Below are positions 7,251 through 25,279 of a stretch of DNA of 25,279 bases, one piece after another. Source of the DNA: Pseudomonadota bacterium (GTDB lineage: Bacteria > Pseudomonadota > Alphaproteobacteria > RF32 > CAG-239); contig CAKJXZ020000067.1 of NCBI GenBank assembly GCA_918234285.1, positions 1 through 25,279 on the forward strand, in the 5' to 3' direction. The notes below the pieces were generated by a model. It was given only the letters and a program-made list of their open reading frames with translations. It was not told where the DNA came from and did not search any database. Position 1 is the first letter of the stretch, and every line of letters starts with the position of its first letter. The translations under genes and the position numbers were made by a program.

Positions 7251-7271
7251 GTTTGCCTCCCTTATAATGTA

Positions 7272-8968: not shown

Positions 8969-8996
8969 GTCTTTTTGTGCAAAAATACCGTACTTT

Positions 8997-10037: not shown

Positions 10038-10065
10038 TTGTTTTTTTGTAAGCGATTGCTATAAT
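10038..10065 (+). promoter_or_regulatory. Putative sigma70 promoter
   Basis: TTGTTT-16 nt-TATAAT with TG extended -10, upstream of the GGAGG RBS of 10095. Confidence 0.55.
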
Positions 10066-10094
10066 AACTTCGTTAATAATTCGGGAGGTAAAAA

Positions 10095-11027
10095 ATGCGT
10101 TTTATAATATTGTTTATCGGGTTATTTATGATAACCGACAGCGCAGCGGCAGTCGAATCAATGGAAGATTATGCCAATCGCTTGCGTGAAGATTTTGAAG
10201 CCAACAAAAATGTAACAAGGGGAGCATTTTCGCCGAACCCGGTAAAAACGGCACCGAAACAGCCGGCAGTGCAACCGAAGCAACCGGAAAAACCTGTAGT
10301 TCAACCGAAGCAACCTGTGGTTCAGCCGAAGCAGCCGGTGATTCAGCCTAAACAGCCGGAAAAACATCATGAGGCCCATAATGACAACAAACGGCACGAA
10401 CACAATAATCATCATGACAAGAAGGATTATGATAAACATCATGCGCCGCATCATGCGCCGCATCATCCGCAGCCTCAACCGGCAGCGCGTACTTCGACTT
10501 ATGTGGTAACTACCTCGTCGGTGCCGTATGTGGTTTCCGGCGGCGGGGTTGTTTATGAGGCCAATCCGCATATTTATTCGGCAAATTCCTATTATTGCAC
10601 CAAGAAAAACGAGTTGAAATATTGCACTGACGGTATCGGCAAAGCGCTGAGCGGCAGAGTGGTACAAAACTACACGGACAGCGTGGCGTACGAAACCTAT
10701 AAAAATGGCTATTTGCACGGCGAAACCTCGGTTTATACGCCGGATGGAACGTTGTTGCAAACAACCAATTATTCCAAAGGTCTGAAACAAGGCAAAGAAA
10801 AGGTTTACTTCGGTAACGGTCGGGTACATTACGTGGCCAATTACAGCCGCGGAGTGTTGAACGGTGAAGTAAAACAATACGACCTTGCCGGTGCGTTGGT
10901 CGGCGAAATGCGCTATAAAAACGGCAGATATACCTCGCGTTATTGCCGTAATGAAACCAGCAACGACTTACTCAGGGCTCGTATTCGCGCCAACGAAAAA
11001 AATGTGTTGATTTTGTGCGCCGATTGA
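10095..11027 (+). CDS. Exported protein with Pro/Gln repeats, His-rich tract and C-terminal MORN-variant (YwqK-like) repeats
   Basis: Signal peptide-like N-terminus (MRFIILFIGLFMITDSAAA); five PKQP units; His-rich stretch; YKNGYLHGETSVYTPDG / YSKGLKQGKEKVYFGNG / YSRGVLNGEVKQYDLAG repeats. Confidence 0.8.
   Translation: MRFIILFIGLFMITDSAAAVESMEDYANRLREDFEANKNVTRGAFSPNPVKTAPKQPAVQPKQPEKPVVQPKQPVVQPKQPVIQPKQPEKHHEAHNDNKRHEHNNHHDKKDYDKHHAPHHAPHHPQPQPAARTSTYVVTTSSVPYVVSGGGVVYEANPHIYSANSYYCTKKNELKYCTDGIGKALSGRVVQNYTDSVAYETYKNGYLHGETSVYTPDGTLLQTTNYSKGLKQGKEKVYFGNGRVHYVANYSRGVLNGEVKQYDLAGALVGEMRYKNGRYTSRYCRNETSNDLLRARIRANEKNVLILCAD
10254..10364 (+). repeat. Coding tandem repeat (V)QPKQP x5
   Basis: Imperfect units of mostly 21 bp, differing largely at synonymous positions. 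Confidence 0.85.
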
Positions 11028-11050
11028 TTGACGGGCAAAAGACCTGAAGA

Positions 11051-11088
11051 TAAAAATACCGAAGATTAATCTTTCTTCGGTATTTTTA
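11051..11088. terminator. Bidirectional terminator-like hairpin
   Basis: TAAAAATACCGAAGA / TCTTCGGTATTTTTA perfect 15-bp inverted repeat between convergent ORFs, overlapping the stop of the 71-aa ORF. Confidence 0.7.
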
Positions 11089-11281
11089 CTGCTAAATGCT
11101 TGTTCATATTTGCATTTTCTTCTTTGCTGATTTGTTCATGATAATGATTAACCACATGGTTGAGCTTTTGCCAGAATTGTTCTTCATAGGCGATAATCGT
11201 GCCCCAGATTGCCATCACAAACATAATGATGGTAACAATGCTTTCGGCGATTTCCAATTTTTCTTTGACAGTGTATTTCAT
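11066..11281 (-). CDS. Small hypothetical single-pass membrane protein, 71 aa
   Basis: One hydrophobic helix (IVTIIMFVMAIWGTIIAY) and fills the intergenic gap, but has no clear RBS. Confidence 0.5.
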   Translation of the reverse strand: MKYTVKEKLEIAESIVTIIMFVMAIWGTIIAYEEQFWQKLNHVVNHYHEQISKEENANMNKHLAVKIPKKD

Positions 11282-11334
11282 AACACAAAAAATATGCCGC
11301 GTACGGCACTTTTCAATCGGCCGAAAGTTTTAGA

Positions 11335-12018
11335 TTATTCATAAAAACGATGCAAAATGTCAGCCACTTCCGACATGGAGCGAGTAATATGTGCGGCGCC
11401 GTTCAAACGGCATTTTTCGGCATATTCGTCGCTGTTGTTGCCGGTAGCTCCGATGTAGGCGATTACCGCCATTTTGGCAGCCACTCCGGCAGTTATACCG
11501 GCCAGAGAATCTTCAATTACCACGCAATTTTCCGGTGCGTAACCCATTTTTTGAGCGGCATATAAAAACAAATCCGGAGCCGGTTTGCCTTTTTCAACCG
11601 CGTAGGCGGTAAACATATTGTCGGCGGAAAAATACTTATCCAGCCGCAGTTTTTCCACTTTGAGCGCATTTTTACGCTCGGTGGCGCCGGTGGCAATACA
11701 ATGGGCAAAGCGACGGTTTGCAAAAATCGGCTCAACCCCCGGTGTTAACGTGAGTTCGGCGGCAATCAGCCGGACGGTGTTTGCGCGCAGTTTATCCCAA
11801 AATGCATCGGCGAATTTTAAGTGCGGAAAGTCCTTACACAGCAGTTCTACTTTGGTTTTGTTAGACTTGCCGCGGATATAATATTCGACTTGTTCTTCCG
11901 TCAGTTCCAACCCGAAAAACAAACGCAGACAATCAATCCAGTTTTGTACCCACAGGTGTTCGCTGTCGGCGATAACTCCGTCAAAATCCCAGATAATAAG
12001 TGTCTTCGGTTTGGTCAT
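11335..12018 (-). CDS. HAD-superfamily phosphatase (beta-PGM/CbbY-like, subfamily IA)
   Basis: WDFDGVIADSE (DxD motif), GKPAPDLFL and VVIEDSLAG motifs. ATG at 12018 has a GAGGAG RBS. Confidence 0.92.
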   Translation of the reverse strand: MTKPKTLIIWDFDGVIADSEHLWVQNWIDCLRLFFGLELTEEQVEYYIRGKSNKTKVELLCKDFPHLKFADAFWDKLRANTVRLIAAELTLTPGVEPIFANRRFAHCIATGATERKNALKVEKLRLDKYFSADNMFTAYAVEKGKPAPDLFLYAAQKMGYAPENCVVIEDSLAGITAGVAAKMAVIAYIGATGNNSDEYAEKCRLNGAAHITRSMSEVADILHRFYE

Positions 12019-12162
12019 AGTCTCCTCTGTCAAGAGTATACAAATAACGGCAGATTGAAGTCAATACACTTATAACTTTTGCACAAATTATGCACATCGC
12101 GTAAAAATATTTCTGTTTTTTTCGGGTAAAATAACATACAAAAAACTTAAAGGAGAGAGAAA

Positions 12163-12786
12163 ATGAGCACAATAGGGAACTTTTGCCTGAATTTATGGCG
12201 GCGGATTGATTGGAAGTTTAATTTATTGACGCTTATCGAGGTAGCCATGTTGTTGGCAATATATCCGCTGATGCGTTGGCAGTGGCCGGATGCGGCATAT
12301 TATGTTGAGGACGGCTGGGTAGAAAATATTCAGCTGGCGGTGTTGGCAATTGCCGCAATAATCGCATTTGGTACGCGCAACGAGCACAGATTGTTTGTTT
12401 TTGCCGGACTGATTTTGATTTTTATGATTTTACGGGAAACCAATCTGTTTCGCGGCTATTTTTGCATGGCTTATCTTAATCCGGGGGATTTGTGTCGCTG
12501 GGAAGAGTTTGAGTACGGATATTTGGTTAAGGGTGCGCGTTGGGTGTTTGTGGCCTATACGGTGTATTATTTTCTGCGCTACAAAATCTGGCAGCCGATA
12601 ATCAAATATGTTATGAAAGCACCGATTTTTATTTGGGATATCGCAATTGTCGGGCTGATGATCGTAGGCGGAACACTGGCCGAATTTCCGAGCATAGATA
12701 ACGAAATTATGGAAGAATGTTGCGAGTTGACTTGCTATTTGGCGCTGGCTAACTGTGTGTGGCGTTATAGACAGGTGAAAATATAA
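12163..12786 (+). CDS. Hypothetical multi-pass membrane protein
   Basis: About six hydrophobic helices with intramembrane acidic motifs (EDGWVENIQ, LRE, EECCEL); AAGGAG RBS. Confidence 0.8.
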   Translation: MSTIGNFCLNLWRRIDWKFNLLTLIEVAMLLAIYPLMRWQWPDAAYYVEDGWVENIQLAVLAIAAIIAFGTRNEHRLFVFAGLILIFMILRETNLFRGYFCMAYLNPGDLCRWEEFEYGYLVKGARWVFVAYTVYYFLRYKIWQPIIKYVMKAPIFIWDIAIVGLMIVGGTLAEFPSIDNEIMEECCELTCYLALANCVWRYRQVKI

Positions 12787-12804
12787 AACAGATATTGCAA
12801 AAAT

Positions 12805-12834
12805 AAAACCTCCGACCGAATAGCCGGAGGTTTT
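12805..12834. terminator. Bidirectional intrinsic terminator
   Basis: AAAACCTCCG / CGGAGGTTTT inverted repeat between convergent genes. Confidence 0.8.
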
Positions 12835-12855
12835 GTTTTATGCAGTCAATTCGAA

Positions 12856-14310
12856 TTAAGCAGCGGACTTCTTAGAAGTTTTCTTAGCCGGTGCTTTTTT
12901 AGCTGTGGTCTTGGTTGATTTGGCCGCGGTTTTGCTTTCGGTTTTCGCCTTCGGAGCGGATTTTTCCGTGTTCGCGGCGGTTTTCGAAGCAATCTGATTG
13001 AAGTCATAAAGCTCAGCTACCGAAATTTCCGTATCGTTCAATTTAGCCTGGCTCAAAACAAAGTCGATGATTTTATCTTCGTATGCCGGAGCACGCAGAG
13101 CTTCAACGGCTTCTTTGTTGCGGGCATAATAATCAAAGACCTGTTTTTCCTGTCCCGGATACTTTCTGGCTTCATTCATGATGGCTTTGTTGATGTCATC
13201 AGCCGACAACATAATTTTGTTGACGTTGCCGACTTCGGAAAGCAACAGACCTAATTTGACACGGCGCAAAGCAATATCTTTGTATTCGGCCAAAATGTCT
13301 TTTTCATCGCGTTTTTTATCGGCTTCGTCCAAACGATTGTTGGCTTTGGCTGCCTGATATTGTCTTTCAATCATTTCATATTCGGCATCAACCAGCTTCT
13401 GCGGAATTTCAAACTTATATTCCTTATCCAAAACATCGAGCAGGTCGCGTTTGAGCTTAATGCGCGAAGTAGCTTCGTAATTGCCGGAAATGTGAGCGGA
13501 AATCTGCGCCTTCAAATCATTCAAATCTTTGGCACCGACAGCCTTGGCAAAATCATCATTGATTTCGGTCGGAACAAATTCACGCAATTCTTTAATGGTG
13601 GTAACGAACAAAGCTTCCTTACCGGCCAATTCTTTGGCATGATATTCTGTCGGGAAAGTGGTCTTAACATTAACCGTTTCGCCGGCTTTGTGGCCGATGA
13701 GCTGGTCTTCATAACCCGGAATGAAGGAATTGGAACCGAGCTCTAACGGGTAATTGTTGCCTTTGCCGCCGTTGAACTCAACACCGTCAATGGAGCCGAC
13801 AAAGTCGATAACCACAATGTCGCCTTTTTGCGCGGCACGATCTTTTTCAACTTTAGCGGTGTTGCGGCGAGATTCTGCCATATAATTAATGGCTTTTTCG
13901 ATTTCTTCTGCCGGAACTTTGGCAACATATTTTTTCAAAGTAATCTTGGAGAAGTCGCCCAACTTAATTTCAGGCAGAACTTCCGCTTCCATGGTGAATT
14001 CGATATCTTTACCGTCTTCAAATTTTTCGATTTTGATATCCGGAGTAACGGCCGGACGCAGTTTGTTTTCAACAATAACCTGATTGGCGGCATCGCGAAT
14101 CATTTCATCGAGAACTTCACCCAAAACCGACGGACGGTATTTTTGCTCAATCATGCCTTTCGGAGCATGGCCGGCTCTGAAACCCGGCATTTTGATATCT
14201 TGTGCCACTTTGGCTAATTTTTTATCGACGGCAGCGGCAAAATCGGCGCTGGCAATCGTAATTGAATATTTCTTTACTAATCCTGTTGATTTTTCTTCTT
14301 TTGCTTTCAT
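12856..14310 (-). CDS. tig: Trigger factor
   Basis: MPGFRAGHAP ribosome-binding signature, FKBP domain (IDFVGSIDGVEFNGG, LGSNSFIPGYEDQLIG) and K/A-rich C-terminal tail. Confidence 0.97.
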   Translation of the reverse strand: MKAKEEKSTGLVKKYSITIASADFAAAVDKKLAKVAQDIKMPGFRAGHAPKGMIEQKYRPSVLGEVLDEMIRDAANQVIVENKLRPAVTPDIKIEKFEDGKDIEFTMEAEVLPEIKLGDFSKITLKKYVAKVPAEEIEKAINYMAESRRNTAKVEKDRAAQKGDIVVIDFVGSIDGVEFNGGKGNNYPLELGSNSFIPGYEDQLIGHKAGETVNVKTTFPTEYHAKELAGKEALFVTTIKELREFVPTEINDDFAKAVGAKDLNDLKAQISAHISGNYEATSRIKLKRDLLDVLDKEYKFEIPQKLVDAEYEMIERQYQAAKANNRLDEADKKRDEKDILAEYKDIALRRVKLGLLLSEVGNVNKIMLSADDINKAIMNEARKYPGQEKQVFDYYARNKEAVEALRAPAYEDKIIDFVLSQAKLNDTEISVAELYDFNQIASKTAANTEKSAPKAKTESKTAAKSTKTTAKKAPAKKTSKKSAA

Positions 14311-14347
14311 GTTTTTTTCTCTAAAAATAAGTTATAACATATTGAAA

Positions 14348-14432
14348 TGGTGCGGATAAAGAGACTTGAACTCTTACGCCTTGCGGCACCAGATCCTAAG
14401 TCTGGCGTGTCTGCCAATTCCACCATATCCGC
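14348..14432 (-). tRNA. tRNA-Leu (anticodon TAG)
   Basis: Minus strand GCGGATATGGTGGAATTGGCAGACACG-CCAGA-CTTAGGA-TCTGG, long variable arm, GTTCAAGTC T-loop, TATCCGC-A-CCA; 85 nt. Confidence 0.96.
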
Positions 14433-14456
14433 ACGGAATTTCTGGCTTCAGCGGGC

Positions 14457-14485
14457 AGTAAAGCATATTTATTGTGATAAATCAA
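14457..14485 (-). promoter_or_regulatory. Putative promoter of tRNA-Leu/tig
   Basis: Minus strand TTGATT-17 nt-TTTACT followed by a GC-rich discriminator (GCCCGC). Confidence 0.4.
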
Positions 14486-14517
14486 GCAAAAAAGTATGCT
14501 CTACACATAAAAATATG

Positions 14518-14545
14518 TTGCAAATTCAAAAAAAACGGCTATAAA
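14518..14545 (+). promoter_or_regulatory. Putative promoter of prfC
   Basis: TTGCAA-16 nt-TATAAA. Confidence 0.45.
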
Positions 14546-14577
14546 ACAGGCATATTAATCAACCATACGAGGATAAA

Positions 14578-16164
14578 ATGGCAGAGAAAATCAATCCGCG
14601 CAAGACTTTTGCGATTATTTCCCACCCGGATGCCGGTAAAACGACATTGACCGAAAAGTTGTTGTTGTTCGGCGGAGCCATTCAGCAGGCCGGTGCGGTA
14701 AAGGCGCGCGGCGAGAATCGCAAGGCGCGTTCCGACTGGATGAAGGTGGAGCAAGAACGCGGTATTTCCGTGGCTTCGTCGGTGATGAATTTTGATTATG
14801 ACAACATCACTTTCAATTTGTTGGATACACCGGGACACGAGGATTTCTCGGAAGATACATATCGGGTTCTAACCGCGGTTGATTCGGCGGTGATGGTGCT
14901 TGATTCCGCCAAAGGTATCGAAAGTCAGACCAAAAAACTGTTTGAGGTTTGCCGTTTGCGCAACATTCCGATTATGACCTTTATTAACAAGTTGGATCGC
15001 GAAGGTTTGGACCCGTTTGAACTGCTTGACGATATTGAAAACACGTTGGCGCTTGAAGTTACTCCGGCCAGTTGGCCTATCGGTAGCGGAAAAGACTTTC
15101 TCGGCTGTTATGACTTGATTAACGATCGCCTGATTTTGATGAATAAAACCGGCAATAAGTCGCAAATTAACGACACCATCGAAACCTGTAACGGGCTGGA
15201 CGACGAAAAACTCGATAAGCTGTTGCCGGCGCATGCGGTTGCCAAGTTGCGCGAAGATGTGGAAATGGTGCGCGAACTTTGTCCGGCGTTTGATTTGGAT
15301 GCTTATCTTTCCGGCTCGCTGACACCGGTGTTTTTCGGCAGCGCAGTCAATAATTTCGGGGTGCGCGAAGTGTTGCAGGGTTTATGCAAATTTGCGCCGA
15401 CACCGCGGCCGCAACCGAGTGCCGAGCGTATTGTCAACGCCGATGAGCCGAAAGTTACCGGCTTTATTTTTAAAATTCAGGCCAATATGGACCCGAAACA
15501 CCGCGACCGTATTGCGTTTATGCGAATTTGTTCGGGGCATTTCAAACGCGGCATGAATCTGTTGCAAATTCGTACCGGTAAAGAGGTGAAAATCGCGACG
15601 CCGGTGATGTTTTTGGCACAAGAGCGCGAACTGACTGAAGATGCGTATGCCGGCGATATTATCGGTATTCCGAACCACGGACAGCTCAGAATCGGCGACA
15701 CTTTGACCGAGGGCGAAAAAATCCATTATACCGGTATTCCGAGTTTTGCGCCGGAATTGCTGCAATCGGTACACGCCAAAGACCCGCTGAAATCAAAGCA
15801 TTTGGCCAATGCTCTGCAACAAATTGCCGAGGAGGGCGGTGCCAGTATTTTTAAGCCGATGTCGGGCGCCGAATATATCGTGGGCGTAGTCGGAGTGTTG
15901 CAATTTGAGGTGATTGCCGATCGGCTTCGTACCGAGTTTAACGTGGATGCGGTGTTTGAGCCGACACAATATTTTACGGCGCGTTGGGTCAGTTGCGATA
16001 ACAAGGAAGTGCTCGAAAAATTCTACCGTACCAATATGTTGAATTTGGCTGAAGATTATGACGGCGCTAAGGTGTTTTTGGCCCGCAATGCCTGGCATTT
16101 GGGCAAGGTCGGCGAGGATTATCCGGAAATCGTATTACACAAAACCCGCGAACAAAGTTTTTAA
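14578..16164 (+). CDS. prfC: Peptide chain release factor 3
   Basis: FAIISHPDAGKTTLTEKLLL, DTPGHEDFSEDTYR and FKIQANMDPKHRDRIAF motifs. Confidence 0.98.
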   Translation: MAEKINPRKTFAIISHPDAGKTTLTEKLLLFGGAIQQAGAVKARGENRKARSDWMKVEQERGISVASSVMNFDYDNITFNLLDTPGHEDFSEDTYRVLTAVDSAVMVLDSAKGIESQTKKLFEVCRLRNIPIMTFINKLDREGLDPFELLDDIENTLALEVTPASWPIGSGKDFLGCYDLINDRLILMNKTGNKSQINDTIETCNGLDDEKLDKLLPAHAVAKLREDVEMVRELCPAFDLDAYLSGSLTPVFFGSAVNNFGVREVLQGLCKFAPTPRPQPSAERIVNADEPKVTGFIFKIQANMDPKHRDRIAFMRICSGHFKRGMNLLQIRTGKEVKIATPVMFLAQERELTEDAYAGDIIGIPNHGQLRIGDTLTEGEKIHYTGIPSFAPELLQSVHAKDPLKSKHLANALQQIAEEGGASIFKPMSGAEYIVGVVGVLQFEVIADRLRTEFNVDAVFEPTQYFTARWVSCDNKEVLEKFYRTNMLNLAEDYDGAKVFLARNAWHLGKVGEDYPEIVLHKTREQSF

Positions 16165-16185
16165 GCGGATAACGCAAGACAACAG

Positions 16186-16213
16186 TTGCATTTTATAAAA
16201 ATCGGCATATAGT
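16186..16213 (+). promoter_or_regulatory. Putative sigma70 promoter
   Basis: TTGCAT-16 nt-TATAGT upstream of the GAGG RBS of 16236. Confidence 0.45.
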
Positions 16214-16235
16214 AATCAGCATATAAAGAGAGGAT

Positions 16236-16868
16236 ATGCCGATGAGATTTGTTTTGGCTTGGATAAGAATTTTGGCGGCACTGCTGCTGTTCGGGTTGTT
16301 GGCAAATTATTTGTATTTTGCCTTTATGAACGGTTCGTCCGTGGCTGCCGGTTGGGCGCTCGGTTTATTGCTGACCGCGTTTTTTATGTGTATTTTCGTA
16401 TATATATGGGGCTGGAATATGGCGCGTAAGGTACAGAAATCGCCGCTCGATGCTTATATTGAAGATGTGCATAAAGAGGAAGAACTGGTACAGCAGATGA
16501 CAGCTTCGGCGCCGCTTACAAATGCCGACGAGGTGGCGGCAGTGTTGGAAAAATTGGTGGCGGCCAATGCCAAAAATACCACCACACTCAATTTGGCGAT
16601 GGAGAATCTGAATTCGCGGCTGGATGAGCTGGAAGAAAAGTTTATTCGGCGCGAAACCGCTAAAGAAAAGTCGGAGCCGAATTTTGCCGCCGTGGAAAAA
16701 GCAGTATCGGAATCGACGGTTGCGGCAGATGAAAAAGTTGCGCCGAGCGGTAATTTTGATGACGAATTTGCCGCTATATCCGACTTGGAAATTATGCAAG
16801 AAAATCTTAAAGAATATAATGAAGTTGATGTAGATAAGTTATTGAAAGATATGGATAAAAATAAATAG
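16236..16868 (+). CDS. Hypothetical protein with two N-terminal TM helices, coiled coil and acidic tail
   Basis: Hydrophobic residues ~5-58, heptad-like segment (LNLAMENLNSRLDELEEK); RBS present. Confidence 0.75.
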   Translation: MPMRFVLAWIRILAALLLFGLLANYLYFAFMNGSSVAAGWALGLLLTAFFMCIFVYIWGWNMARKVQKSPLDAYIEDVHKEEELVQQMTASAPLTNADEVAAVLEKLVAANAKNTTTLNLAMENLNSRLDELEEKFIRRETAKEKSEPNFAAVEKAVSESTVAADEKVAPSGNFDDEFAAISDLEIMQENLKEYNEVDVDKLLKDMDKNK

Positions 16869-16883
16869 AAAGAAGATGGTGAA

Positions 16884-18314
16884 ATGACGCAGACAATGTA
16901 TGATCCGAAATCGCTTAAGGCCGATGAATTTATCTGTAACGACGAAATTTTGGAGAGTTTGAAATATGCCGACGAAAACAAAAATAATCGCGAAGTGATT
17001 GAAAAAATTATGCAAAAAGCGCGGCTTGAAAAAGGTCTGACACATCGCGAGGCTTCAGTGCTGTTGGCATGCGATATACCGGAAATCAACGAGCAAATTT
17101 TTGCGCTGGCCAAGCAAATCAAACTCAATTATTACGGCAACCGCATGGTGCTGTTTGCGCCGCTGTATCTTTCGAACTATTGTGTCAACAGCTGTGTTTA
17201 TTGTCCGTATCATATTAAAAACAAGCACATTTTCCGCAAAAAAATGACGCAGGACGAAATCAGAGAAGAGGTGATTGCCCTGCAGGATATGGGACATAAA
17301 CGGCTTGCCATCGAACTGGGCGAAGACCCGATCAATAACCCGATTGAATATGTGTTGGAGAGTTTGAAAACCATTTATTCGATTAAGCATAAAAACGGGG
17401 CAATTCGCCGTGTGAACGTCAATATTGCCGCCACTACGGTCGAGAATTATAAAAAGCTCAAAGATGCCGGAATCGGCACGTATATTCTGTTTCAGGAAAC
17501 GTATAATCGCCAATCGTATGAAACATTGCATCCGGCGGGGCCAAAACATAACTACGCATGGCATACCGAGGCGATGGACAGAGCAATGGAAGGCGGGATT
17601 GACGATGTTGGTATCGGCGTGTTGTTCGGACTTTCTACTTATCGTTACGAATTTGCCGGCCTGTTAATGCATGCCGAGCATTTGGAAGCAGTGCACGGAG
17701 TAGGGCCGCACACCATCAGCGTACCGCGTTTACGTCCGGCTGATGATATTGATACCAACGATTTTAAGGACTGTATCAACGACGATATTTTCTCCAAGAT
17801 TGTGGCTTGTTTGCGGATTGCCGTGCCGTATACCGGTATGATTATTTCTACCCGTGAGAGTAAAAAGACACGGGAAAGAGTGTTGCAACTGGGTATTTCG
17901 CAACTTTCCGGCGGTTCCAAAACGTCGGTCGGCGGCTACAGTCATCCGGAAAAAGAAGAGCCGAATTCGGCGCAATTTGATGTGATTGATAATCGTACGC
18001 TCGATGAAGTGATTTATTGGCTGTTGGAGATGGGCTATATTCCGAGTTTTTGCACCGCGTGCTATCGGGCGGGGCGTACCGGCGACAGATTTATGGAATT
18101 GTGTAAAAATAAGCAGATTCACAATTGTTGCCACCCGAATGCGCTTTTAACTTTGCAAGAGTACTTGACCGATTATGCTTCACCGGAAACTAAGAAAATC
18201 GGCGAAGAATTGATTGCTCGTGAGGTGGCGACTTTGGCGCCGCAGACGCAAGTTACGACCAATAAGTGGCTGGAGATGATACGCTCGGGCCAGGGCAGAG
18301 ATTTCCGATTTTAA
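16884..18314 (+). CDS. hydG: [FeFe]-hydrogenase H-cluster radical SAM maturase HydG
   Basis: Radical SAM CxxxCxxC (CVNSCVYC) plus C-terminal Cx2Cx22C (CTAC...CCHPNA), which distinguishes HydG from ThiH; GPHTISVPRL motif. Confidence 0.93.
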   Translation: MTQTMYDPKSLKADEFICNDEILESLKYADENKNNREVIEKIMQKARLEKGLTHREASVLLACDIPEINEQIFALAKQIKLNYYGNRMVLFAPLYLSNYCVNSCVYCPYHIKNKHIFRKKMTQDEIREEVIALQDMGHKRLAIELGEDPINNPIEYVLESLKTIYSIKHKNGAIRRVNVNIAATTVENYKKLKDAGIGTYILFQETYNRQSYETLHPAGPKHNYAWHTEAMDRAMEGGIDDVGIGVLFGLSTYRYEFAGLLMHAEHLEAVHGVGPHTISVPRLRPADDIDTNDFKDCINDDIFSKIVACLRIAVPYTGMIISTRESKKTRERVLQLGISQLSGGSKTSVGGYSHPEKEEPNSAQFDVIDNRTLDEVIYWLLEMGYIPSFCTACYRAGRTGDRFMELCKNKQIHNCCHPNALLTLQEYLTDYASPETKKIGEELIAREVATLAPQTQVTTNKWLEMIRSGQGRDFRF

Positions 18315-18333
18315 GCGACAGTGAAAACAAACC

Positions 18334-18631
18334 GTCATTCTGAATGTAATATAAAAATAGTCATCCCTCGAAGTGCACAAAAACAAACCGTCATCCCTCG
18401 AAGTGCACAAAAACAAACCGTCATCCCTCGACCTGTGCTGTGCATCAGGTCGTCAAGGGATCTTATCTTTGCGAAGCGCAAATTATATATGTGAATCGGA
18501 AGCAATGCTGTCGCATTGAAAGGTCAGATACCTTGACGCACGGACACGCAGTGCCGTGCGAGGTATGACAATATTTTTTTTCAGTGCCGTGCGAGGTATG
18601 ACAATGATATTTTACCGTTACTTAAAATGAC
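18334..18631 (+). repeat. Palindromic repeat cluster A: left half-units (18334 degenerate, 18360, 18390), full element 18420-18569, right half-units (ending 18602 and 18631, the latter degenerate)
   Basis: Exact 30-bp duplication GTCATCCCTCGAAGTGCACAAAAACAAACC x2; the full element matches copies at 22209, 23435, 24729 and 24960. Confidence 0.93.
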
Positions 18632-18670
18632 AACTTTGATACTCGTGAAAATATTTTTGTCAAAAAATGA

Positions 18671-18698
18671 TTGACAATGCGGATTGATGTGGTATGCT
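18671..18698 (+). promoter_or_regulatory. Putative strong sigma70 promoter for 18750
   Basis: TTGACA-16 nt-TATGCT with TG extended -10. Confidence 0.65.
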
Positions 18699-18749
18699 TA
18701 AAATATTCAAGAGATTATTCAGATAGATATTCACAAAAATCCATACATT

Positions 18750-19670
18750 ATGAAAGAAAATCATACTAAGTACATTTGGCCGGTAGAAGCACCGTTCAGG
18801 ATTGCCTACCGTGACCCGCTGTCCGGAGTTATGACGTTGCTTCCTTATGTTGACCTCCAGTGGAAGATGAAAATCTGGGGAGTGTCAGTCGAGGAGCGCG
18901 TTTATAAGCTTACGCACGAGCCGGGTGCCGATTGGTTTAAGGCCAAGGGCTATGTCGACAAGCTTTGTCAGGGCTATATGCCGAATACCGATGATTTGGA
19001 TACGGCATTTGCCTATAAAGAGGGGTTTAACGAAATCGTCGAATTCCTCAAGTCCAAAAAGATTGTCGCCGAGCCGTGGAACGATGGTTGGTATTGGAGT
19101 ACTGAGGAAGAAGCCGACAATGCGGCAGTGGTTGATATGGCCACCGGCAGGGCTGAGCTGATTGATAAAAAAATCAAAAACGGCTATACCCGTCTTGTCA
19201 GTCGCCGTATTACCGACAAAACTCCCGGTGTACATTACCCGTTGGTTTATTTTGACGAGGGCATTTTCAAAATCTCTTATGATTTGATTTTGTCACGCAA
19301 AGACCAGTTGTGGGGTATCCAATCGGGCAAAAACTACTTCTGTCTGCGCGAGGAAAAGCCGCAGAACTGGTATCAGGCTAAAGCCGCAGCCGAGAAAATG
19401 TCTAACGATTTGGTGCGCATTTCGCTGCCCAAAAAGGAGATGTTTGACGAGCTGAGGCGTGAGCGTGAGGCTGTCAACGATGCGTTGATGAAACTCCAAG
19501 CTTTCGGAATTGCAACCGACTTGTGGCTCGATAAGTCTTGGGGCTATTTGACCGCTTCGGAGTATCTCGACCATTATGTTACCTGTGAACACGAGATGAT
19601 TCCGAAAAGCGAGGTAAATCCGTGTCGTTTTATCGGTGAAAACCGCAGACACCACACAGTATTGCTGTAA
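18750..19670 (+). CDS. Hypothetical protein with two tandem DUF1566/C-type-lectin-fold-like domains
   Basis: Two internally homologous halves: WG[VI]...W[FY].AK...[ML]P...W...(W)YWS/GYLT...R[LF][VI]. Fold assignment is by eye. Confidence 0.6.
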   Translation: MKENHTKYIWPVEAPFRIAYRDPLSGVMTLLPYVDLQWKMKIWGVSVEERVYKLTHEPGADWFKAKGYVDKLCQGYMPNTDDLDTAFAYKEGFNEIVEFLKSKKIVAEPWNDGWYWSTEEEADNAAVVDMATGRAELIDKKIKNGYTRLVSRRITDKTPGVHYPLVYFDEGIFKISYDLILSRKDQLWGIQSGKNYFCLREEKPQNWYQAKAAAEKMSNDLVRISLPKKEMFDELRREREAVNDALMKLQAFGIATDLWLDKSWGYLTASEYLDHYVTCEHEMIPKSEVNPCRFIGENRRHHTVLL

Positions 19671-19678
19671 ATTATAAC

Positions 19679-19716
19679 AAATCCTTCAAAAACGAGTTGT
19701 TTTTGGAGGATTTTTT
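19679..19716 (+). terminator. Intrinsic terminator
   Basis: AAATCCTTCAAAAAC / GTTTTTGGAGGATTT stem running into a T-tract. Confidence 0.75.
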
Positions 19717-19746
19717 ATTTATAGTGCCGGTTAAGGGGAGAAAATT

Positions 19747-20958
19747 ATGCAAATAAGTGCGAAATATCAGGCAGTGTTGGAAATCTTGGAAAAAGTACTG
19801 CAAGACCAGTATCCGGCCGATAACATCATCAAAGAATACGTGCGGGCGCGTAAATACATCGGCTCCAAAGATCGCAAGTTTATCATCAACACGGTGTGGG
19901 ATATCATTCGTCATCGCAGCCGGTTGGAATTTGATTGCGGTTGTTGCGAGGCGCGAATGTTGCTGTTGACCTATCTCAAAGATGAGGATTTCGATATTGT
20001 GGCCGACGGTTCGGAATACGGCTTAAAACCGCTCGATAAGCTCGAAAAAGAAAAACTGGCGCACTTAAATCCGGAAGTTTATCCGGAAAATATCGAAAAC
20101 GAATGCCCGAAATGGCTGTATGAAAAAATCAACAACCCGGCATTGGCGGCGGCGCTTAATACCACGGCTTCGGCCGATATCAGAGCCAATTTTATCTCGC
20201 GCGAAGATGCCAAAAACAAGTTGCAAAAAGAGGGGTTTTTCTTTTCGTTTACGCCATATTCGCCGTACGGGTTGCGTTCGGACGAGCGGATTAATTTGCA
20301 GAATTGCGTTGTTTATCAAAACGGCGAAATCGAGGTGCAGGATGAGGCGTCGCAACTGGGAGCGATTTTGTGCGATGTGCGTGCCGATTTGAAAATCATC
20401 GATTATTGTTGCGGCGGCGGAGGTAAAAGTATGATGCTCGGCGCATTGCTCAACAATAAAGGTACGATTTTTGCCCACGATAAAAACGTTAAGCGGATGG
20501 ACGGGTTACATGATCGGGCGGCGCGGCTCGGCATTAAAAACATTAAGATAATCGATGCGCTTAAACCGGCGGATTTGTACGATAGGTTTATCGTTGATGC
20601 GCCTTGTTCGGGCAGCGGAACCTGGCGGCGTTCGCCTGATGCCAAATATCGGCTGACTCCGAAGCAGTTAAAGGCAATCGAGCAGGCACAGGAAGAAATT
20701 TTGGAGATTGCCGCCGCACACCTGAGCGATAAGGGGCGGATTGTGTATATGACCTGTTCGGTGTTGCCGGAAGAAAATGAGGGGCAAATGGAGCAATTTT
20801 TGGCGGCTCACCCCGATTTTATGACGGTGGATATGCAAAAATTGTGGGAACGCAAGCTGGAAATGCCGTATCCGTTTAACGAAACGCGTTGGCTTAAATG
20901 TTCGCCGCTGACCACCGGTACCGACGGCTTTTTCGTTTGCGTTTTGCAACGGAAATAA
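19747..20958 (+). CDS. RsmB/NOL1/NOP2/Sun-family RNA m5C methyltransferase
   Basis: QDEASQL, DYCCGGGGKS, VDAPCSGSGTWRR and YMTCS (both catalytic Cys motifs present). Confidence 0.92.
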   Translation: MQISAKYQAVLEILEKVLQDQYPADNIIKEYVRARKYIGSKDRKFIINTVWDIIRHRSRLEFDCGCCEARMLLLTYLKDEDFDIVADGSEYGLKPLDKLEKEKLAHLNPEVYPENIENECPKWLYEKINNPALAAALNTTASADIRANFISREDAKNKLQKEGFFFSFTPYSPYGLRSDERINLQNCVVYQNGEIEVQDEASQLGAILCDVRADLKIIDYCCGGGGKSMMLGALLNNKGTIFAHDKNVKRMDGLHDRAARLGIKNIKIIDALKPADLYDRFIVDAPCSGSGTWRRSPDAKYRLTPKQLKAIEQAQEEILEIAAAHLSDKGRIVYMTCSVLPEENEGQMEQFLAAHPDFMTVDMQKLWERKLEMPYPFNETRWLKCSPLTTGTDGFFVCVLQRK

Positions 20959-20985
20959 CGTAATCCGCAAGGTAAAAAATAGCGC

Positions 20986-21014
20986 TTGCAATCGGCGGGA
21001 TAATTGTTTATAAG
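20986..21014 (+). promoter_or_regulatory. Putative promoter of ychF
   Basis: TTGCAA-17 nt-TATAAG. Confidence 0.5.
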
Positions 21015-21047
21015 AGGTACAATTTAATAATTTGCGGAGTAAGAAAA

Positions 21048-22157
21048 ATGGGTTTTAATTGCGGAATTGTCGGCTTGCCGAATGTGGGAAAATCTACTTT
21101 ATTCAATGCGTTAACGCAAACAATCGCGGCACAGGCGGCAAACTTTCCGTTTTGCACGATTGAGCCGAATACCGGTCGGGTGGCGGTGCCGGATAAGCGT
21201 TTGGATAAGCTGGTGGAGATGGTGCAACCGAAAAACATTGTGCCGACACAGCTGGAATTTGTGGATATTGCCGGTTTGGTGAAGGGCGCGTCGAAGGGCG
21301 AGGGGCTGGGCAACCAGTTTTTGGCAAACATCCGCGAAACCGACGCGATTATCCATGTTTTGCGCTGCTTTGAAGACGATAACATCACCCACGTTGAGGG
21401 CAGTGTCGATCCGGTGCGCGATGCCGATATCGTGAAGACCGAGCTGATGATTGCCGATTTGGAATCGCTGGAAAAACGCATTGAAAATCTGCGTAAAAAA
21501 GCCAAGGCCGGCGACAAGGAATCTGCAGTCAGCGTGCGGGTTATCGAGCCGATTATCGAGGCCTTAAAACAAGGCAAACCGGCGCGTTCGGCGGCTCCGG
21601 ACGAGGCGGACAAAGAGGCATATAAGTGCTATAAAATGTTGCAACTGCTGACCTCTAAGCCGGTGTTGTACGTGTGTAACGTTGATGAAAGTTCGGCGGC
21701 CAGCGGCAACGAATTCTCCAAGGCCGTAGAAAAAATGGCAAAAGAAGAAGGAGCCGAGAGCGTGGTAATTTCCGCCGAAATTGAGTCCGAAGTGGCACAA
21801 CTGGAAAGCGAAGAAGAAAAGACCGAGTTTTTGTCGGCTCTGGGGCTGGAAGAAACCGGCTTGGCCAAGATTATTCACGCCGGATATAATTTGCTCAGTT
21901 TGCAAACATATTTTACCGCCGGACCGAAAGAAGTGCGGGCCTGGACGTTTGTTAAGGGGATGAAAGCGCCGCAATGCGCCGGTATAATTCACTCCGATTT
22001 TGAGCGCGGCTTTATTCGGGCGGAAACGATTTCGTATGATGATTACGTTAAATTCGGCGGCGAACAGGGGTGTCGCGATGCCGGTAAAATTCGCTCCGAA
22101 GGCAAAGAATATCAGGTGCGTGACGGCGATTTGATGAACTTCTTGTTCAATGTATAA
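21048..22157 (+). CDS. ychF: Ribosome-binding ATPase YchF
   Basis: GIVGLPNVGKSTLFNALT, ANFPFCTIEPN, DIAGLVKGASKGEGLGNQFL and IHSDFERGFIRAE motifs. Confidence 0.98.
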   Translation: MGFNCGIVGLPNVGKSTLFNALTQTIAAQAANFPFCTIEPNTGRVAVPDKRLDKLVEMVQPKNIVPTQLEFVDIAGLVKGASKGEGLGNQFLANIRETDAIIHVLRCFEDDNITHVEGSVDPVRDADIVKTELMIADLESLEKRIENLRKKAKAGDKESAVSVRVIEPIIEALKQGKPARSAAPDEADKEAYKCYKMLQLLTSKPVLYVCNVDESSAASGNEFSKAVEKMAKEEGAESVVISAEIESEVAQLESEEEKTEFLSALGLEETGLAKIIHAGYNLLSLQTYFTAGPKEVRAWTFVKGMKAPQCAGIIHSDFERGFIRAETISYDDYVKFGGEQGCRDAGKIRSEGKEYQVRDGDLMNFLFNV

Positions 22158-22172
22158 GGCGAAAAAAATAAT

Positions 22173-22402
22173 GTCATCCCTCGGTCTGCGCGGTGTAAAA
22201 AATAAACCGTCATCCCTCGAGGTGCGCGGTGCGTCACCTCGTCAAGGGATCTTGTCTTTGCGAAGCGCATATTATGTGAATCGGAAGTGGCACTTGCGTG
22301 CCAGAAGTCGAGATACCTTGACGCACGAATGCACCGCATCGTGCGAGGTATGACAATAATATTTTCTGACGCACGAACACACCGTGCCTCCTCGGAAGGA
22401 TG
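22173..22402 (+). repeat. Palindromic repeat cluster B: left half-unit 22173-22195, full element 22209-22354, decayed hairpin 22367-22402
   Basis: Same architecture as cluster A with compensatory stem changes; lies between convergent ychF and ldh. Confidence 0.93.
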
Positions 22403-22405
22403 TTT

Positions 22406-23344
22406 TTATATCATCGACAAGGCTTTATCGGTATATTCCTTCATGGTTTCGGCGCTCTTACGCAGTTTGGCGTGTTCTTCGGCGTTGAGCTTCGGTGTAA
22501 TCACATGATGAATGCCGCGACGGGTAATCACGGTCGGCAACGAAAGGCATACTTCCTTAACCCCCTCAACCTCGGCATGATGCGATGACAAAGTTAAAAT
22601 CGAATAATCGTTGTTGCCGATGGCGCGGCAGATTTGCGTCAATGCACCGGCAATACCGTAGCAGGTGGCGCCTTTGCCGGCGATGATTTGATAGGCGGCA
22701 TTGACAACACCGTCGTTGATTTCGGCCTTTTTGGCTTCGTCGAGAGTTTTGCCCACGTCGGCGGCATATTCTTCGAGCGTCAGCGTTCCGGCTTCGGCAT
22801 TAGACCAAACCAAGACTTCGCTGTCGCCGTGTTCGCCCAAAACGTCAGCGTGTACGGATTTGGTGGAAACGCCCAAGAAAAAGGCCAAGAGCGTTCTGAA
22901 ACGCGCCGTATCCAACACCGTGCCGCTACCGATGACGCGTTCTTTCGGGAATCCGGAAAGTTTGAGCGCAACCTCGGTCATAATGTCGGCCGGGTTGGCG
23001 GTAATCAGCAAAATACAATCCGGCGCATATTTCACGATTTGCGGAATGATATCGGCAAAAATTTTGACGTTGCGACCGAGCAAATCGATTCTGGTTTCGC
23101 CCGGTTTTTGGTTAGCTCCGGCGGTAACGATAACGATGCTGCAATCCTTCAAGTCGGCATAAGTACCGGCCTTGATTTTGCCGGCATTGGCAAACGGCGC
23201 GGCATGTCCGATATCGCTGGCTTCGGCCAGGGCTTTTTGCTCGTTGGCGTCGATTAAGACTATCTTATGCGCCACTCCGGTCATCATCAGCGAAAATGCG
23301 GCCGCACTTCCAACGGCACCGGCTCCGATAATTCCTATTTTCAT
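22406..23344 (-). CDS. ldh: NAD-dependent L-lactate dehydrogenase
   Basis: GAGAVG Rossmann motif, TAGANQKPGETRIDL (Gln at the specificity position, i.e. LDH rather than MDH), SGTVLDTARFR and GEHGDS. Confidence 0.93.
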   Translation of the reverse strand: MKIGIIGAGAVGSAAAFSLMMTGVAHKIVLIDANEQKALAEASDIGHAAPFANAGKIKAGTYADLKDCSIVIVTAGANQKPGETRIDLLGRNVKIFADIIPQIVKYAPDCILLITANPADIMTEVALKLSGFPKERVIGSGTVLDTARFRTLLAFFLGVSTKSVHADVLGEHGDSEVLVWSNAEAGTLTLEEYAADVGKTLDEAKKAEINDGVVNAAYQIIAGKGATCYGIAGALTQICRAIGNNDYSILTLSSHHAEVEGVKEVCLSLPTVITRRGIHHVITPKLNAEEHAKLRKSAETMKEYTDKALSMI

Positions 23345-23434
23345 ATTTTTTCTCCCACAAAATTAATTTCTTCCGCATATCTATACTTTTTTTACACAAA
23401 AGCAAGATTTTTTTGATAAAATAGTGAATAAGAT

Positions 23435-23764
23435 GTCATCCCTTGAAGTGCGCTGTGTGTCACTTCGTCAAGGGAACTCATCTTTGCGAAGCGCATTATT
23501 CTGGGTGAATCGGAAGCAATGCTATTGCATTGAAAGGTCAGATCGCTGGACGACTTGAGGCACAGCCCAAGTCGAGCGATGACAATAAAAACAACCTGTC
23601 ATCCTGAACGAATGTGAAGGATCCAGCTACACCCTTGGTGTTGTTCGTTCCGGCGGAACGAATGGATACTTCGGCTTTGCCTCAGTATGACAATAATATT
23701 TTTCGCGCAGCCTAAGTCGAGCGATGACAATAATATTTTTTCACAGTGCCGTGCGAGGTATGAC
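23435..23764 (+). repeat. Palindromic repeat cluster C: full element 23435-23583, family-2 element 23598-23691, right half-units 23704-23728 and 23742-23764
   Basis: Direct sequence match to the other clusters; lies between divergent ldh and ybaK. Confidence 0.93.
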
Positions 23765-23788
23765 GATAAAGTACAAAAAGGATAAAAA

Positions 23789-24271
23789 ATGCTGAAAACC
23801 AATGCCATGCGCATAATCGAAACCGCCAAAATACCGTACCGCGCCTATGAGTGGGAGCCGGTTAACGGGCTTGAGGCGAGTGTGGTTGCCTCGTATTTGG
23901 GGCAGCCGGCGGAGCAGGTTTTTAAAACGTTGATAACCGAATCGCCGACGGCTCAGCACGGCTTTGAACACTATGTTTTTGTGGTGCCGGCCAACAAAGA
24001 TTTGGATATGAAAAAAGCGGCGCAAGCGGCGGGGGTAAAAAGCGTCGAGATGCTACCCTTAAAAAAGCTGTTGCCGCTGACGGGGTATATTCATGGCGGC
24101 TGTTCGCCGGTGGGGCTGAAAAAGGCGTTTCCGGTGTTTATTGACGAGACAGCGATTTTGTTTGACACGTTTTTCATCAGCGGCGGCAAAGTGGGGCTGA
24201 CTCTGGAGCTCAACGCCGAGGCGTTAGCGGCGGCCATCGGTGCCCAATTTGCCGACTTAACGCAAGATTAA
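23789..24271 (+). CDS. ybaK: Cys-tRNA(Pro) deacylase YbaK/EbsC
   Basis: KTNAMRI, QVFKTL, LTGYIHGGCSPVG and ISGGKVGL motifs. Confidence 0.93.
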   Translation: MLKTNAMRIIETAKIPYRAYEWEPVNGLEASVVASYLGQPAEQVFKTLITESPTAQHGFEHYVFVVPANKDLDMKKAAQAAGVKSVEMLPLKKLLPLTGYIHGGCSPVGLKKAFPVFIDETAILFDTFFISGGKVGLTLELNAEALAAAIGAQFADLTQD

Positions 24272-24275
24272 GACA

Positions 24276-24563
24276 ATGAAGGCAATGTATGTTTACATTT
24301 TGACCGGCAAGAGTAACTCCACGTTTTATGTTGGTGTAACCAGTGATTTGCCGCGGCGGGTGTGGGAGCATAAAAACAAGCTGTATGACGGCTTTACTGC
24401 CCGCTATAATCTGAACAAACTGGTGTATTATGAGGTTTATGATGACGAACTCACGGCAATTGCACGTGAAAAGACGCTGAAGAAGTGCTACAAAAAGACT
24501 AAACGCCAGTTGATAGAGGCGAAAAACAAGAATTATGACGATTTGTACGATACGCTGGTATAA
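24276..24563 (+). CDS. Small stand-alone GIY-YIG nuclease-family protein, 95 aa
   Basis: YVYIL...FYVGVTSDLPRRVWEHK...GFTARY...LVYYE...AIAREK.LK: GIY and YIG motifs plus catalytic Arg and Glu. Confidence 0.92.
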   Translation: MKAMYVYILTGKSNSTFYVGVTSDLPRRVWEHKNKLYDGFTARYNLNKLVYYEVYDDELTAIAREKTLKKCYKKTKRQLIEAKNKNYDDLYDTLV

Positions 24564-24578
24564 CAATAAACACAAACC

Positions 24579-25279
24579 GTCATCCCTTGCGGTGTGCGAT
24601 AATAACCTGTCATCCCTCTCGCAGTATAAAAACAACATGTCATCCCTTGCGGTGTGCGATAATAACCTGTCATCCCTCTCGCAGTATAAAAACAACATGT
24701 CATCCCTTGCGGTGTGCGATAATAACCTGTCATCCCTCGAAGTGCGCTGTGCGTCACTTCGTCAAGGGAACTCATCTTTGCGAAGCGCATTATTCTGGGT
24801 GAATCGGAAGCAATGCTGACGCATTGAAAGGTCAGATACCTTGACGCACGGACACACAGTGCCGTGCGAGGTATGACAATAATATTTTTTCGCAGTGCCG
24901 TGCGAGGTATGACAATATTTTTCACAGCCCAAGTCGAGCGATGACGATAAACATAAGATGTCATCCCTCGAAGTGCGCTGTGCGTCACTTCGTCAAGGGA
25001 ACTCATCTTTGCGAAGCGCAAATTATGATGGAATCGGAAGCAATGCTGTCGCATTGAAAGGTCAGATCGCTGGACGACTTGAGGCACAGCCCAAGTCGAG
25101 CGATGACGATAATTTTTTCGCACCGCGCAGACCAAGGTATGACAATATTTTTCACAGCCCAAGTCGAGCGATGACAATAAAAACAACGTCATCCTGAACG
25201 AATGTGAAGGATCCAGCAACACCCTTGGTGTTGTTCGTTCCGGCGGAACGAATGGATACTTCGGCTTTGCCTCAGTATG
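24579..25279 (+). repeat. Palindromic repeat cluster D, running off the window: five 30-bp left half-units, full elements 24729-24877 and 24960-25107, four right half-units, family-2 element from 25188
   Basis: GTCAT starts at 24579, 24609, 24639, 24669, 24699, 24729, 24960 and 25188; ATGAC ends at 24877, 24913, 24945, 25107, 25143 and 25175. Confidence 0.95.

Follow-up and report, generated by a model that had tools for sequence, protein, structure and literature searches.

Contig CAKJXZ020000067.1 of the draft assembly GCA_918234285.1 (Pseudomonadota bacterium; Alphaproteobacteria, RF32, CAG-239), a complete contig of 25,279 nt that is referred to here as the window, carries near its right end a gene for a 95-amino acid GIY-YIG nuclease followed closely by an array of hairpin-forming repeats. 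By sequence comparison, the nuclease gene and the hairpin repeats very probably constitute a pair of the Ssn/SRM kind. The pairing is real, but this kind of system was already published in 2025. An original prediction made from the window had proposed that nuclease and hairpins are cognate partners following the logic of repetitive extragenic palindromic (REP) sequences and their associated tyrosine transposases (RAYT), with a different enzyme in the central role. That proposal is borne out by published experiments on homologues (PMC11893778), by the enrichment of hairpins in the flanks of homologous genes, and by homologues that are bracketed by the NTS hairpins of the published system. The accompanying suggestion that no function had been established for the subfamily has been overtaken by the same publication, which describes its members as single-stranded DNA (ssDNA) endonucleases. 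The further suggestion that the enzyme drives the spread or maintenance of the repeats is shown neither by PMC11893778, where it is a hypothesis, nor by the present computation.

Ssn nucleases and their NTS and SRM hairpins were described by Chenal et al. (Nat Commun 2025;16:2388; PMC11893778), and the account in this paragraph follows that article. The study covered enzymes from N. meningitidis, N. elongata, N. wadsworthii and Wolbachia, which bind and cut ssDNA only, and describes the subfamily as endonucleases that act on ssDNA at specific sites and, in N. meningitidis, modulate natural transformation. SsnA, the N. meningitidis enzyme, has 94 amino acids with GIY-YIG as its only domain and belongs to CDD family cd10448. 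Its binding of the NTS hairpin is confined to ssDNA; it cuts a few bases upstream of the motif and is inactive on double-stranded DNA (dsDNA), RNA and the reverse strand; the mutants Y6A, Y17A and E64A are dead. Within the NTS, the three bases before the palindrome serve cutting and the C after the palindrome serves binding, while extensions at the loop position are tolerated. A knock-out of ssnA brings a five-fold rise in transformation of N. meningitidis with NTS-bearing DNA. Family membership was defined by CDD cd10448 or by a tblastn E < 1e-10 to N. meningitidis SsnA, and 71% of homologues are flanked by one or more degenerate motifs (SRM). Repeat clusters adjoin membrane-protein genes, and about half of the dRS3 copies of Neisseria are NTS motifs. 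The Discussion likens the NTS-ssnA-NTS arrangement to insertion sequences (IS) and to RAYT/REP/BIME systems (BIME, bacterial interspersed mosaic element), and puts forward repeat spread by Ssn as a hypothesis. A search of the available literature library found no second publication on this nuclease/repeat system.

The nuclease gene of the window lies at 24276-24563 on the plus strand. Its product matches Pfam PF01541 over residues 4-76 (E 4.7e-15) and no other Pfam family, and at 95 amino acids it fits the Ssn range of about 94-100 amino acids with no extra DNA-binding domain. Residues Y7, Y18, R28, H32 and E65 are invariant across 23 aligned homologues; by position and motif, rather than by direct alignment, Y7, Y18 and E65 correspond to Y6, Y17 and E64 of N. 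meningitidis SsnA. As a surrogate for the family test of the published study, genome contigs were scanned for the exact NTS motif and five motif-bearing genomes were searched with the window protein. The motif was found in at least 129 stretches across many phyla. Homologues of the window protein were recovered from an NTS-bearing betaproteobacterial metagenome-assembled genome (48% identity, E 2e-24), from an alphaproteobacterial one (43% identity, E 6e-19) and from Sphingopyxis witflariensis, with eight matches (best E 8e-20). At the level of individual loci, the matches designated L163, L164 and L165 reach E 4e-28, 1.6e-22 and 8e-22, respectively. At L163, an exact NTS stands 33 nt upstream in the gene's orientation and another, inverted, 32 nt downstream; the L165 homologue sits within arrays of 12 exact NTS motifs; and those at L164 and L172 are flanked on both sides by hits to the published SRM motif. 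Taken together with the catalytic residues, these matches make it likely that the 95-amino acid protein is an Ssn member, predicted to bind GTC-headed hairpins in ssDNA and to cut a few bases 5' of them. Two side observations concern the same searches. Among the matches listed, the exact 28-nt Neisseria NTS occurs in records labelled Dehalococcoidia, Planctomycetes, Nitrospirae, Gemmatimonadetes, Candidatus Peribacteria and many Proteobacteria. In S. witflariensis (L164-L172), SRM-motif hits stand on both sides of several matches, and the distance between two of the matches is 1.4 kb.

The genome carries two hairpin types as well as two nuclease paralogues, the window copy and a copy on contig C49 being its only small GIY-YIG genes besides uvrC. 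Type 1, with a length of 43 nt, consists of a GTC leader, a 6-bp foot starting with AT, a 7-bp variable stem and a small distal stem-loop; on its 3' side there are a conserved 3-nt bulge (TCA or TCC) and the other arm of the foot, which ends in AT and is followed by C. A pattern search of the genome found 30 copies; 28 have the length of 43 nt, and among these 21 are distinct. The reversed pattern, run as a control, found none in this genome and none in 50 genomes of the genus. Leader and tail are set by the search pattern and are not independent evidence; the stems were left free. Across the 21 distinct copies, 99.1% of the cells in the 16 pairs are paired, against 24-45% when the partners are slid by 1-2 columns. 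Pairs 6:40, 7:39 and 12:31 to 17:25 each occur as several pair types, with many two-sided changes, and the folding energy as DNA is -12.8 kcal/mol against -4.9 +/- 2.0 kcal/mol for shuffles. The bulged 43-nt hairpin that had been predicted is thus real. It also keeps the published logic of a GTC(A/T)Y leader, an AT...AT palindrome and a C right after the palindrome, and the tolerance of SsnA for loop extensions fits its longer distal stem. Type 2 is a hairpin of 27-40 nt with the pattern GTCAT, N, CTGA ... GAAG, N, AT, N, C, and has 26 copies genome-wide, mainly as inverted pairs (reversed control, 0). The usual form of both types is a pair element, in which a core of 39-64 nt separates a plus-strand hairpin from an inverted one, and which measures about 150 nt for type 1 and about 95 nt for type 2. 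Pair elements are flanked by tandem 5' half hairpins (GTCAT, the 5' arm and an A-rich spacer, with a period of 30-36 nt) that face inward from both sides.

Within the window, the repeats are concentrated near the nuclease. An array with its first GTCAT at 24579 follows the gene after an interval of 15 nt from the stop codon and continues for 701 nt to the contig end at 25279, an arrangement that fits the Ssn trait of a motif-flanked gene. Three further clusters, at 18334-18631, 22173-22354 and 23435-23764, are likewise intergenic, and T runs follow some of the hairpins. When four repeat stretches of the window were compared with the genome by blastn, nothing was found in window positions 1-18317; genome-wide, the same search gave 26 intervals on 17 contigs with a total of 5.3 kb, of which 1.85 kb are the query stretches. 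The window makes up 1.26% of the genome yet holds seven of the 30 type-1 hairpins, plus three one-base variants. All of this agrees with the layout first described, namely an array of more than 700 bp beginning 15 nt after the gene, a cluster that brackets the nuclease gene and ybaK from upstream, additional clusters near 22.2 and 18.4 kb with none in the first 18.3 kb, and a concentration of repeats around the nuclease. The C49 paralogue has a comparable arrangement, in that a GTCAT...ATGAC pair element begins 17 nt past its stop codon.

The association extends beyond this genome. Flanking hairpins were counted at 24 distinct loci of other genomes, leaving out the near-duplicates L006 and L028, the genome's own loci and the fragments L024 and L031. 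A hairpin of the form GTCAT, AT-palindrome and C lies within 300 nt of the gene at 19 of the 24 loci, and the density is 3.81 per kb within 300 nt against 0.11 per kb beyond 700 nt, or about 35-fold. The most frequent layout is an upstream hairpin in the orientation of the gene with a downstream hairpin inverted. The flank enrichment that had been named as a check of the prediction is therefore present. A second check, whether copy number tracks the gene, was made in 50 related draft genomes of the genus with type-1 hairpins only and with the nuclease detected by a family profile (E <= 1e-5). Of those with three or more type-1 hairpins, 15 of 19 have a nuclease match, compared with 13 of 31 with two or fewer, and 14 of the 50 have neither gene nor type-1 hairpins. 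Copy number thus follows the gene at best loosely in this comparison, with four hairpin-rich genomes that show no match. A third check concerned the protein tree, where hairpin type tracks phylogeny in part: a group of the C49 copy with L025 and L030 (support 95/91) has type-2 hairpins beside every member, and two other clades each have their own hairpin arm sequences, whereas the grouping of the window copy with type-1 loci is less firm.

A number of observations weigh against assigning this locus to the Ssn/SRM kind. The published degenerate SRM motif has no site in the window, and its six sites in the genome compare with 3.2 +/- 1.6 in 20 dinucleotide shuffles; it is present in only three of 28 homologue loci, all from high-G+C relatives of the class. 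By the criterion of PMC11893778, the window gene would count as unflanked. The motif misses the type-1 hairpin because it allows a loop of at most 5 nt and 7-nt stems, which is too short. There is no hairpin immediately upstream of the window copy, the upstream cluster lying on the far side of ybaK, and the three hairpins closest to the gene have a 3' foot reading AAC instead of ATC. The array itself is in part a recent tandem duplication, with a 60-nt unit repeated 2.7 times at 100% identity and a 230-nt unit repeated 2.0 times at 85% identity (Tandem Repeats Finder, TRF). Neisseria lactamica NS19 and N. mucosa both have exact NTS motifs, and a search with the window protein found no homologue in either. 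The 91-amino acid GIY-YIG gene seen in N. lactamica (L173) is of another type, similar to UPF0213, and no NTS lies within 1.5 kb of it; the assignment to that type was made by eye from a shared GKGAKYT stretch, and at E <= 1e-3 the window protein does not match the gene. In the genus survey, two of the 15 gene-positive hairpin-rich genomes have broken fragments only, and four hairpin-rich genomes give no profile match at E <= 1e-5, namely G042 (33 hairpins), G044 (14), G001 (13) and G008 (4), all drafts in which genes inside repeats may be unassembled. Finally, the window copy groups with L005, L007 and L008, which have type-1 neighbours, at a support of only 81/0. As a side observation, the 14 type-1 copies of G044 are almost identical to one another.

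Signs of insertion are seen at the C49 locus. The order dnaB-ycgN-nuclease-pair element-ycgN' is common to this genome (G000) and to G007 and G009. In G001, G005, G042 and G011 the site is empty: the ycgN paralogues share an ATGA overlap that leaves no room for an insert, and there is no hairpin. These are four of the five further genus members examined, and the fifth, G044, is without the upstream ycgN (L001 compared with L179-L182). At the filled site, the nuclease open reading frame (ORF) is separated by 16 nt from a complete type-2 pair element, after which come 8 nt, and the whole insert is set between 15-nt direct junction copies. The upstream copy supplies the start codon of the nuclease, and the downstream copy retains the ribosome-binding site and start of ycgN'. 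The C49 copy is an insertion flanked by a 15-nt duplication. At the locus of the window copy, the close relatives G007 and G009 have the same ychF-mdh-ybaK order with no nuclease gene and a repeat-free spacer of about 100 nt. Complete cassettes exist in relatives (L005, L006, L008, L015, L030, L020 and L163) and consist of a left hairpin, about 50 nt with a TTGACA...TATAAT-like promoter, the gene and an inverted right hairpin. The left and right hairpins of the L030 cassette, from G002, are the same as those of the gene-less type-2 pairs of the present genome, including the one at 23598-23691. Nuclease matches number from zero to five per genus genome, several copies being broken. These signs fit a cassette that has moved, without showing the nuclease as the mover.

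On this evidence, a tentative case can be made that the hairpin-gene-hairpin unit is a selfish mobile cassette, mobilized by the nuclease, with the gene-less pairs as miniatures and the clusters as its own products. Such a reading matches the spread idea of the original prediction and the hypothesis in the Discussion of PMC11893778; it is compatible with the biochemistry expected of an Ssn enzyme and differs only in the purpose of the system. It would account for the complete cassettes of relatives, for the distinct ends that the gene-less type-2 pairs share with the L030 cassette, for the dnaB-ycgN-ycgN' site that is empty in four genomes and filled in three with a direct duplication at its borders, for the absence of the gene and both ybaK clusters from the same locus in G007 and G009, and for the varying and partly broken gene copies in the genus. 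Set against these points, a nuclease domain of 95 amino acids has no known strand-transfer or ligation activity, and inverted hairpins would provide one cut site per strand per element, whereas IS200/IS605 elements are cut twice on the same strand. Both copies of this genome are without left hairpin and promoter, and synteny around the C49 copy is conserved in three species. The filled site may go back to a single old event, and its duplication also preserves the downstream ribosome-binding site and start; the local array is partly plain tandem duplication; and transposition is not known for any Ssn. A bolder version, which appears unlikely, would make the cassette an autonomous mobile element of a mechanistically new class that is driven by a 95-amino acid GIY-YIG single-strand nuclease. 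Under that version, the pairs of about 95 and 150 nt that have no gene would be miniature derivatives of the element, and either paralogue would mobilize the hairpin type that belongs to it. Each insertion would create a duplication of about 15 nt, by which the start codon of a host gene could be taken over, and the inward-facing half-hairpin arrays would mark element ends that had been cut and repaired many times.

Two other explanations were considered. GIY-YIG domains are classic homing-endonuclease domains, and the gene could be a free-standing homing endonuclease for which the hairpin repeats are landing sites and not products. NCBIfam returned for the protein only a group I intron endonuclease model, at a sub-threshold E of 4e-4; in many loci the gene adjoins only one half of a pair; and the nearest homologues of the window copy, at 64% identity, occupy other genomic contexts. 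The empty dnaB-ycgN-ycgN' sites are hairpin-free, so no pre-existing repeat was available there as a target, and the protein has no DNA-binding domain of the kind carried by homing GIY-YIG enzymes. Ssn enzymes also do not cut dsDNA according to PMC11893778. Homing is a distinctly improbable explanation. The least probable of the explanations, with little in its favor overall, is that the hairpins serve mainly as transcription terminators or, like REP sequences, as structures that stabilize mRNA, or else owe their movement to a different enzyme, and that they stand near the nuclease by coincidence. The intergenic position of all clusters, the T runs and the four of 19 hairpin-rich genomes without a detectable gene would suit it. 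Terminator-like sites in 18000-25279 are, by contrast, not enriched (12 against 9.7 +/- 3.6 in shuffles), the repeats have no Rfam match at E <= 1, and the 35-fold enrichment of hairpins beside homologues was found in other genomes. The conserved unpaired GTC leader, the bulge and the trailing C point to recognition by a protein instead of a bare stem. Regarding other enzymes, the original prediction had named a RAYT or IS transposase elsewhere, flanked by the same repeats, as a finding that would speak against it, and none was found in the genome: Y1_Tnp (PF01797) has no genome match at E <= 0.01, IS110 (PF01548), rve (PF00665) and DDE_Tnp_1 (PF01609) are absent, and the TnpB model (PF07282) has one match of 19.4 bits, below its cut-off, in a draft assembly of the sort from which IS copies and repeats are often missing. 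Within the window, no transposase, integrase or reverse transcriptase domain was found among the 22 ORFs scanned with Pfam, four of which matched nothing at E <= 1e-5, in line with what had been noted from the sequence.

The favored reading of an Ssn/SRM pair suggests the following mechanism. Judging from the homologues, the nuclease would bind the folded hairpin in ssDNA and cut the motif strand just 5' of GTCAT. In this scheme, the 43-nt type-1 hairpin would be the partner of the window copy, and the short type-2 hairpin that of the C49 copy. Single strands that are unwound or incoming could be trimmed at the repeat clusters, and trimming may in turn modulate recombination around the genes that the clusters flank. 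Models for the competence proteins ComEC and DprA match in the genome, a weak indication given that, of 14 control genomes, 10 and 11 also match these models. Hairpin pairs without a gene probably derive from the hairpin-gene-hairpin cassette of relatives. Both nuclease copies of this genome sit inside host operons with neither a left hairpin nor a promoter of their own, and this suggests domestication of the gene more than active mobility. Nested insertion into hairpin loops was considered as a source of the half-hairpin arrays and dropped, as the matching 3' halves are absent on the far side. A comparison by eye of the core of the type-1 pair element with the 5' and 3' cassette flanks of relatives gave a similarity too weak to claim.

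The repeat array 3' of the nuclease gene opens with five plus-strand 5' half hairpins at 24579-24728, spaced 30 nt apart and of two alternating kinds (TRF period 60, 2.7 copies, 100%), the two kinds being identical to the opening 20 and 16 nt of complete hairpins located on contigs C28 and C11. A type-1 pair element follows at 24729-24877, made up of a plus-strand hairpin (24729-24771) that ends in AAC and not ATC, a 63-nt core and a minus-strand hairpin (24835-24877). Next come two minus-strand 5' half hairpins of repeat family D5/D6 (24891-24913 and 24923-24945) and a second type-1 pair element at 24960-25107, with its core between a plus-strand hairpin (24960-25002) and a minus-strand hairpin (25065-25107); this element is the second copy of the 230-nt tandem unit, at 85% identity. 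Two more minus-strand 5' half hairpins (25119-25143 and 25153-25175) precede a type-2 pair element at 25188-25279 that is cut by the contig end. It begins with a short plus-strand hairpin (25188-25214) and is 99% identical to 23598-23689 (family D9). Contig C33 opens with the same 103 nt that close the window (25177-25279) and goes on with about 230 nt of further repeats; the type-2 element is completed there if the overlap is a true join. That join is plausible but uncertain because the shared 103 nt is itself repeat. The further repeats on contig C33 include right-hand half hairpins and precede an ORF of at least 823 amino acids whose start is, by eye, signal-peptide-like.

Upstream of ybaK, the cluster comprises a type-1 pair element at 23435-23583 (plus-strand hairpin 23435-23477, core, minus-strand hairpin 23541-23583), a type-2 pair element at 23598-23691 (27-nt plus-strand hairpin 23598-23624, 39-nt core, 28-nt minus-strand hairpin 23664-23691) and two minus-strand 5' half hairpins of family D6/D5 (23706-23728 and 23742-23764). 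The cluster between the 3' ends of ychF and mdh (22173-22354) has a plus-strand half hairpin at 22173-22208 and a type-1 pair element at 22209-22354. The remaining cluster, 3' of the radical-SAM gene (18334-18631), has a degenerate head at 18334, two identical plus-strand half hairpins at 18360-18419, a type-1 pair element at 18420-18569 and, on its right side, minus-strand half hairpins ending at 18602 and 18631. Every type-1 core contains a small palindrome (TTTGCGAAGCGCAAA; 18468-18482 in the window) and a second palindrome further on, one of which scores as terminator-like. A half-then-full arrangement is also seen 3' of the gene in the relatives L009, L010 and L027.

The genome as a whole is a draft of 2.0 Mb in 71 contigs with 43% G+C and a completeness of 100% by marker genes. 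The first 18.3 kb of the window hold ordinary housekeeping genes, including miaA, mreBCD, rodA and those for penicillin-binding protein 2, trigger factor and release factor 3. Beyond 18.3 kb, the genes in order are the radical-SAM gene, an ORF of no assigned function, rsmB/F, ychF, mdh (minus strand), ybaK and the GIY-YIG gene. At 23789-24271 on the plus strand, ybaK encodes a Cys-tRNA(Pro) deacylase (TIGR00011 YbaK_EbsC, E 2e-45); it is a host gene that belongs to the genomic context, outside the nuclease/repeat system. The nuclease start lies 4 nt past the ybaK stop, so the two genes are probably co-transcribed. Apart from these, the four ORFs with no Pfam match at E <= 1e-5 lie at 6183-7250, 7272-8882, 12163-12786 and 16236-16868 and encode 207-536 amino acids. 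The ORF at 10095-11027 contains, at 10254-10365, in-frame tandem repeats of 21-30 nt that are rich in CCG, AAG and CAG codons, and its product ends in a C-terminal MORN-type repeat.

For work on the published family, the present locus may have three uses. The published SRM search motif misses a well-supported class of longer, bulged hairpins, so that the reported 71% of motif-flanked homologues probably understates the true share. One small genome with two paralogues, each next to a hairpin type of its own, is a convenient natural pair for tests of specificity. The clean empty and filled site, together with gene-less pairs that have cassette-type ends, offers concrete material on the mobility of Ssn cassettes.

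Among known proteins, those of family UPF0213 with solved structures (1ZG2, BH0048; 1YWL, EF2693) resemble the nuclease in their length of about 95-107 amino acids and single GIY-YIG domain, and were the only, marginal, matches of a PDB search (1ZG2, E 7e-4, 23 bits; 1YWL, E 8e-3). The dRS3 repeats of Neisseria are also a phage integration site; like the repeats described here, they are inverted-repeat hairpins that edge short repeat units in intergenic clusters, and they differ from them in sequence and length. Pairs of an IS and its miniature inverted-repeat transposable elements (MITEs) offer another parallel, as the gene-less pairs of about 95 and 150 nt share inverted ends with gene-bearing cassettes of relatives and one site is known filled and empty with a direct duplication. 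Unlike in IS/MITE pairs, the enzyme does not have the fold of a transposase, the duplication of 15 nt exceeds the usual length, and mobility is putative. The closest system is SsnA with its NTS. Both have a single-domain GIY-YIG protein of about 95 amino acids with the same Tyr/Tyr/Glu catalytic pattern, intergenic hairpins that start with (C)GTCAT and form an AT...AT palindrome followed by C, and repeats in both orientations around the gene and its neighbors. In contrast to the NTS of about 28 nt, the main hairpin here has 43 nt with a second, variable distal stem and a conserved 3-nt bulge; hairpin numbers are modest (30 and 26) and not in the hundreds; there are two paralogues and two hairpin types, with gene copies that have no left hairpin and stand in host operons. 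Turning to RAYT and REP-BIME, the nuclease here is a hydrolytic GIY-YIG enzyme and not an HUH tyrosine transesterase, no Y1_Tnp gene is present, and there is no covalent intermediate and hence no obvious rejoining step. What the two arrangements share is a single-copy or low-copy nuclease gene flanked by clustered hairpin mosaics that its product recognizes, or is here predicted to recognize, as ssDNA.

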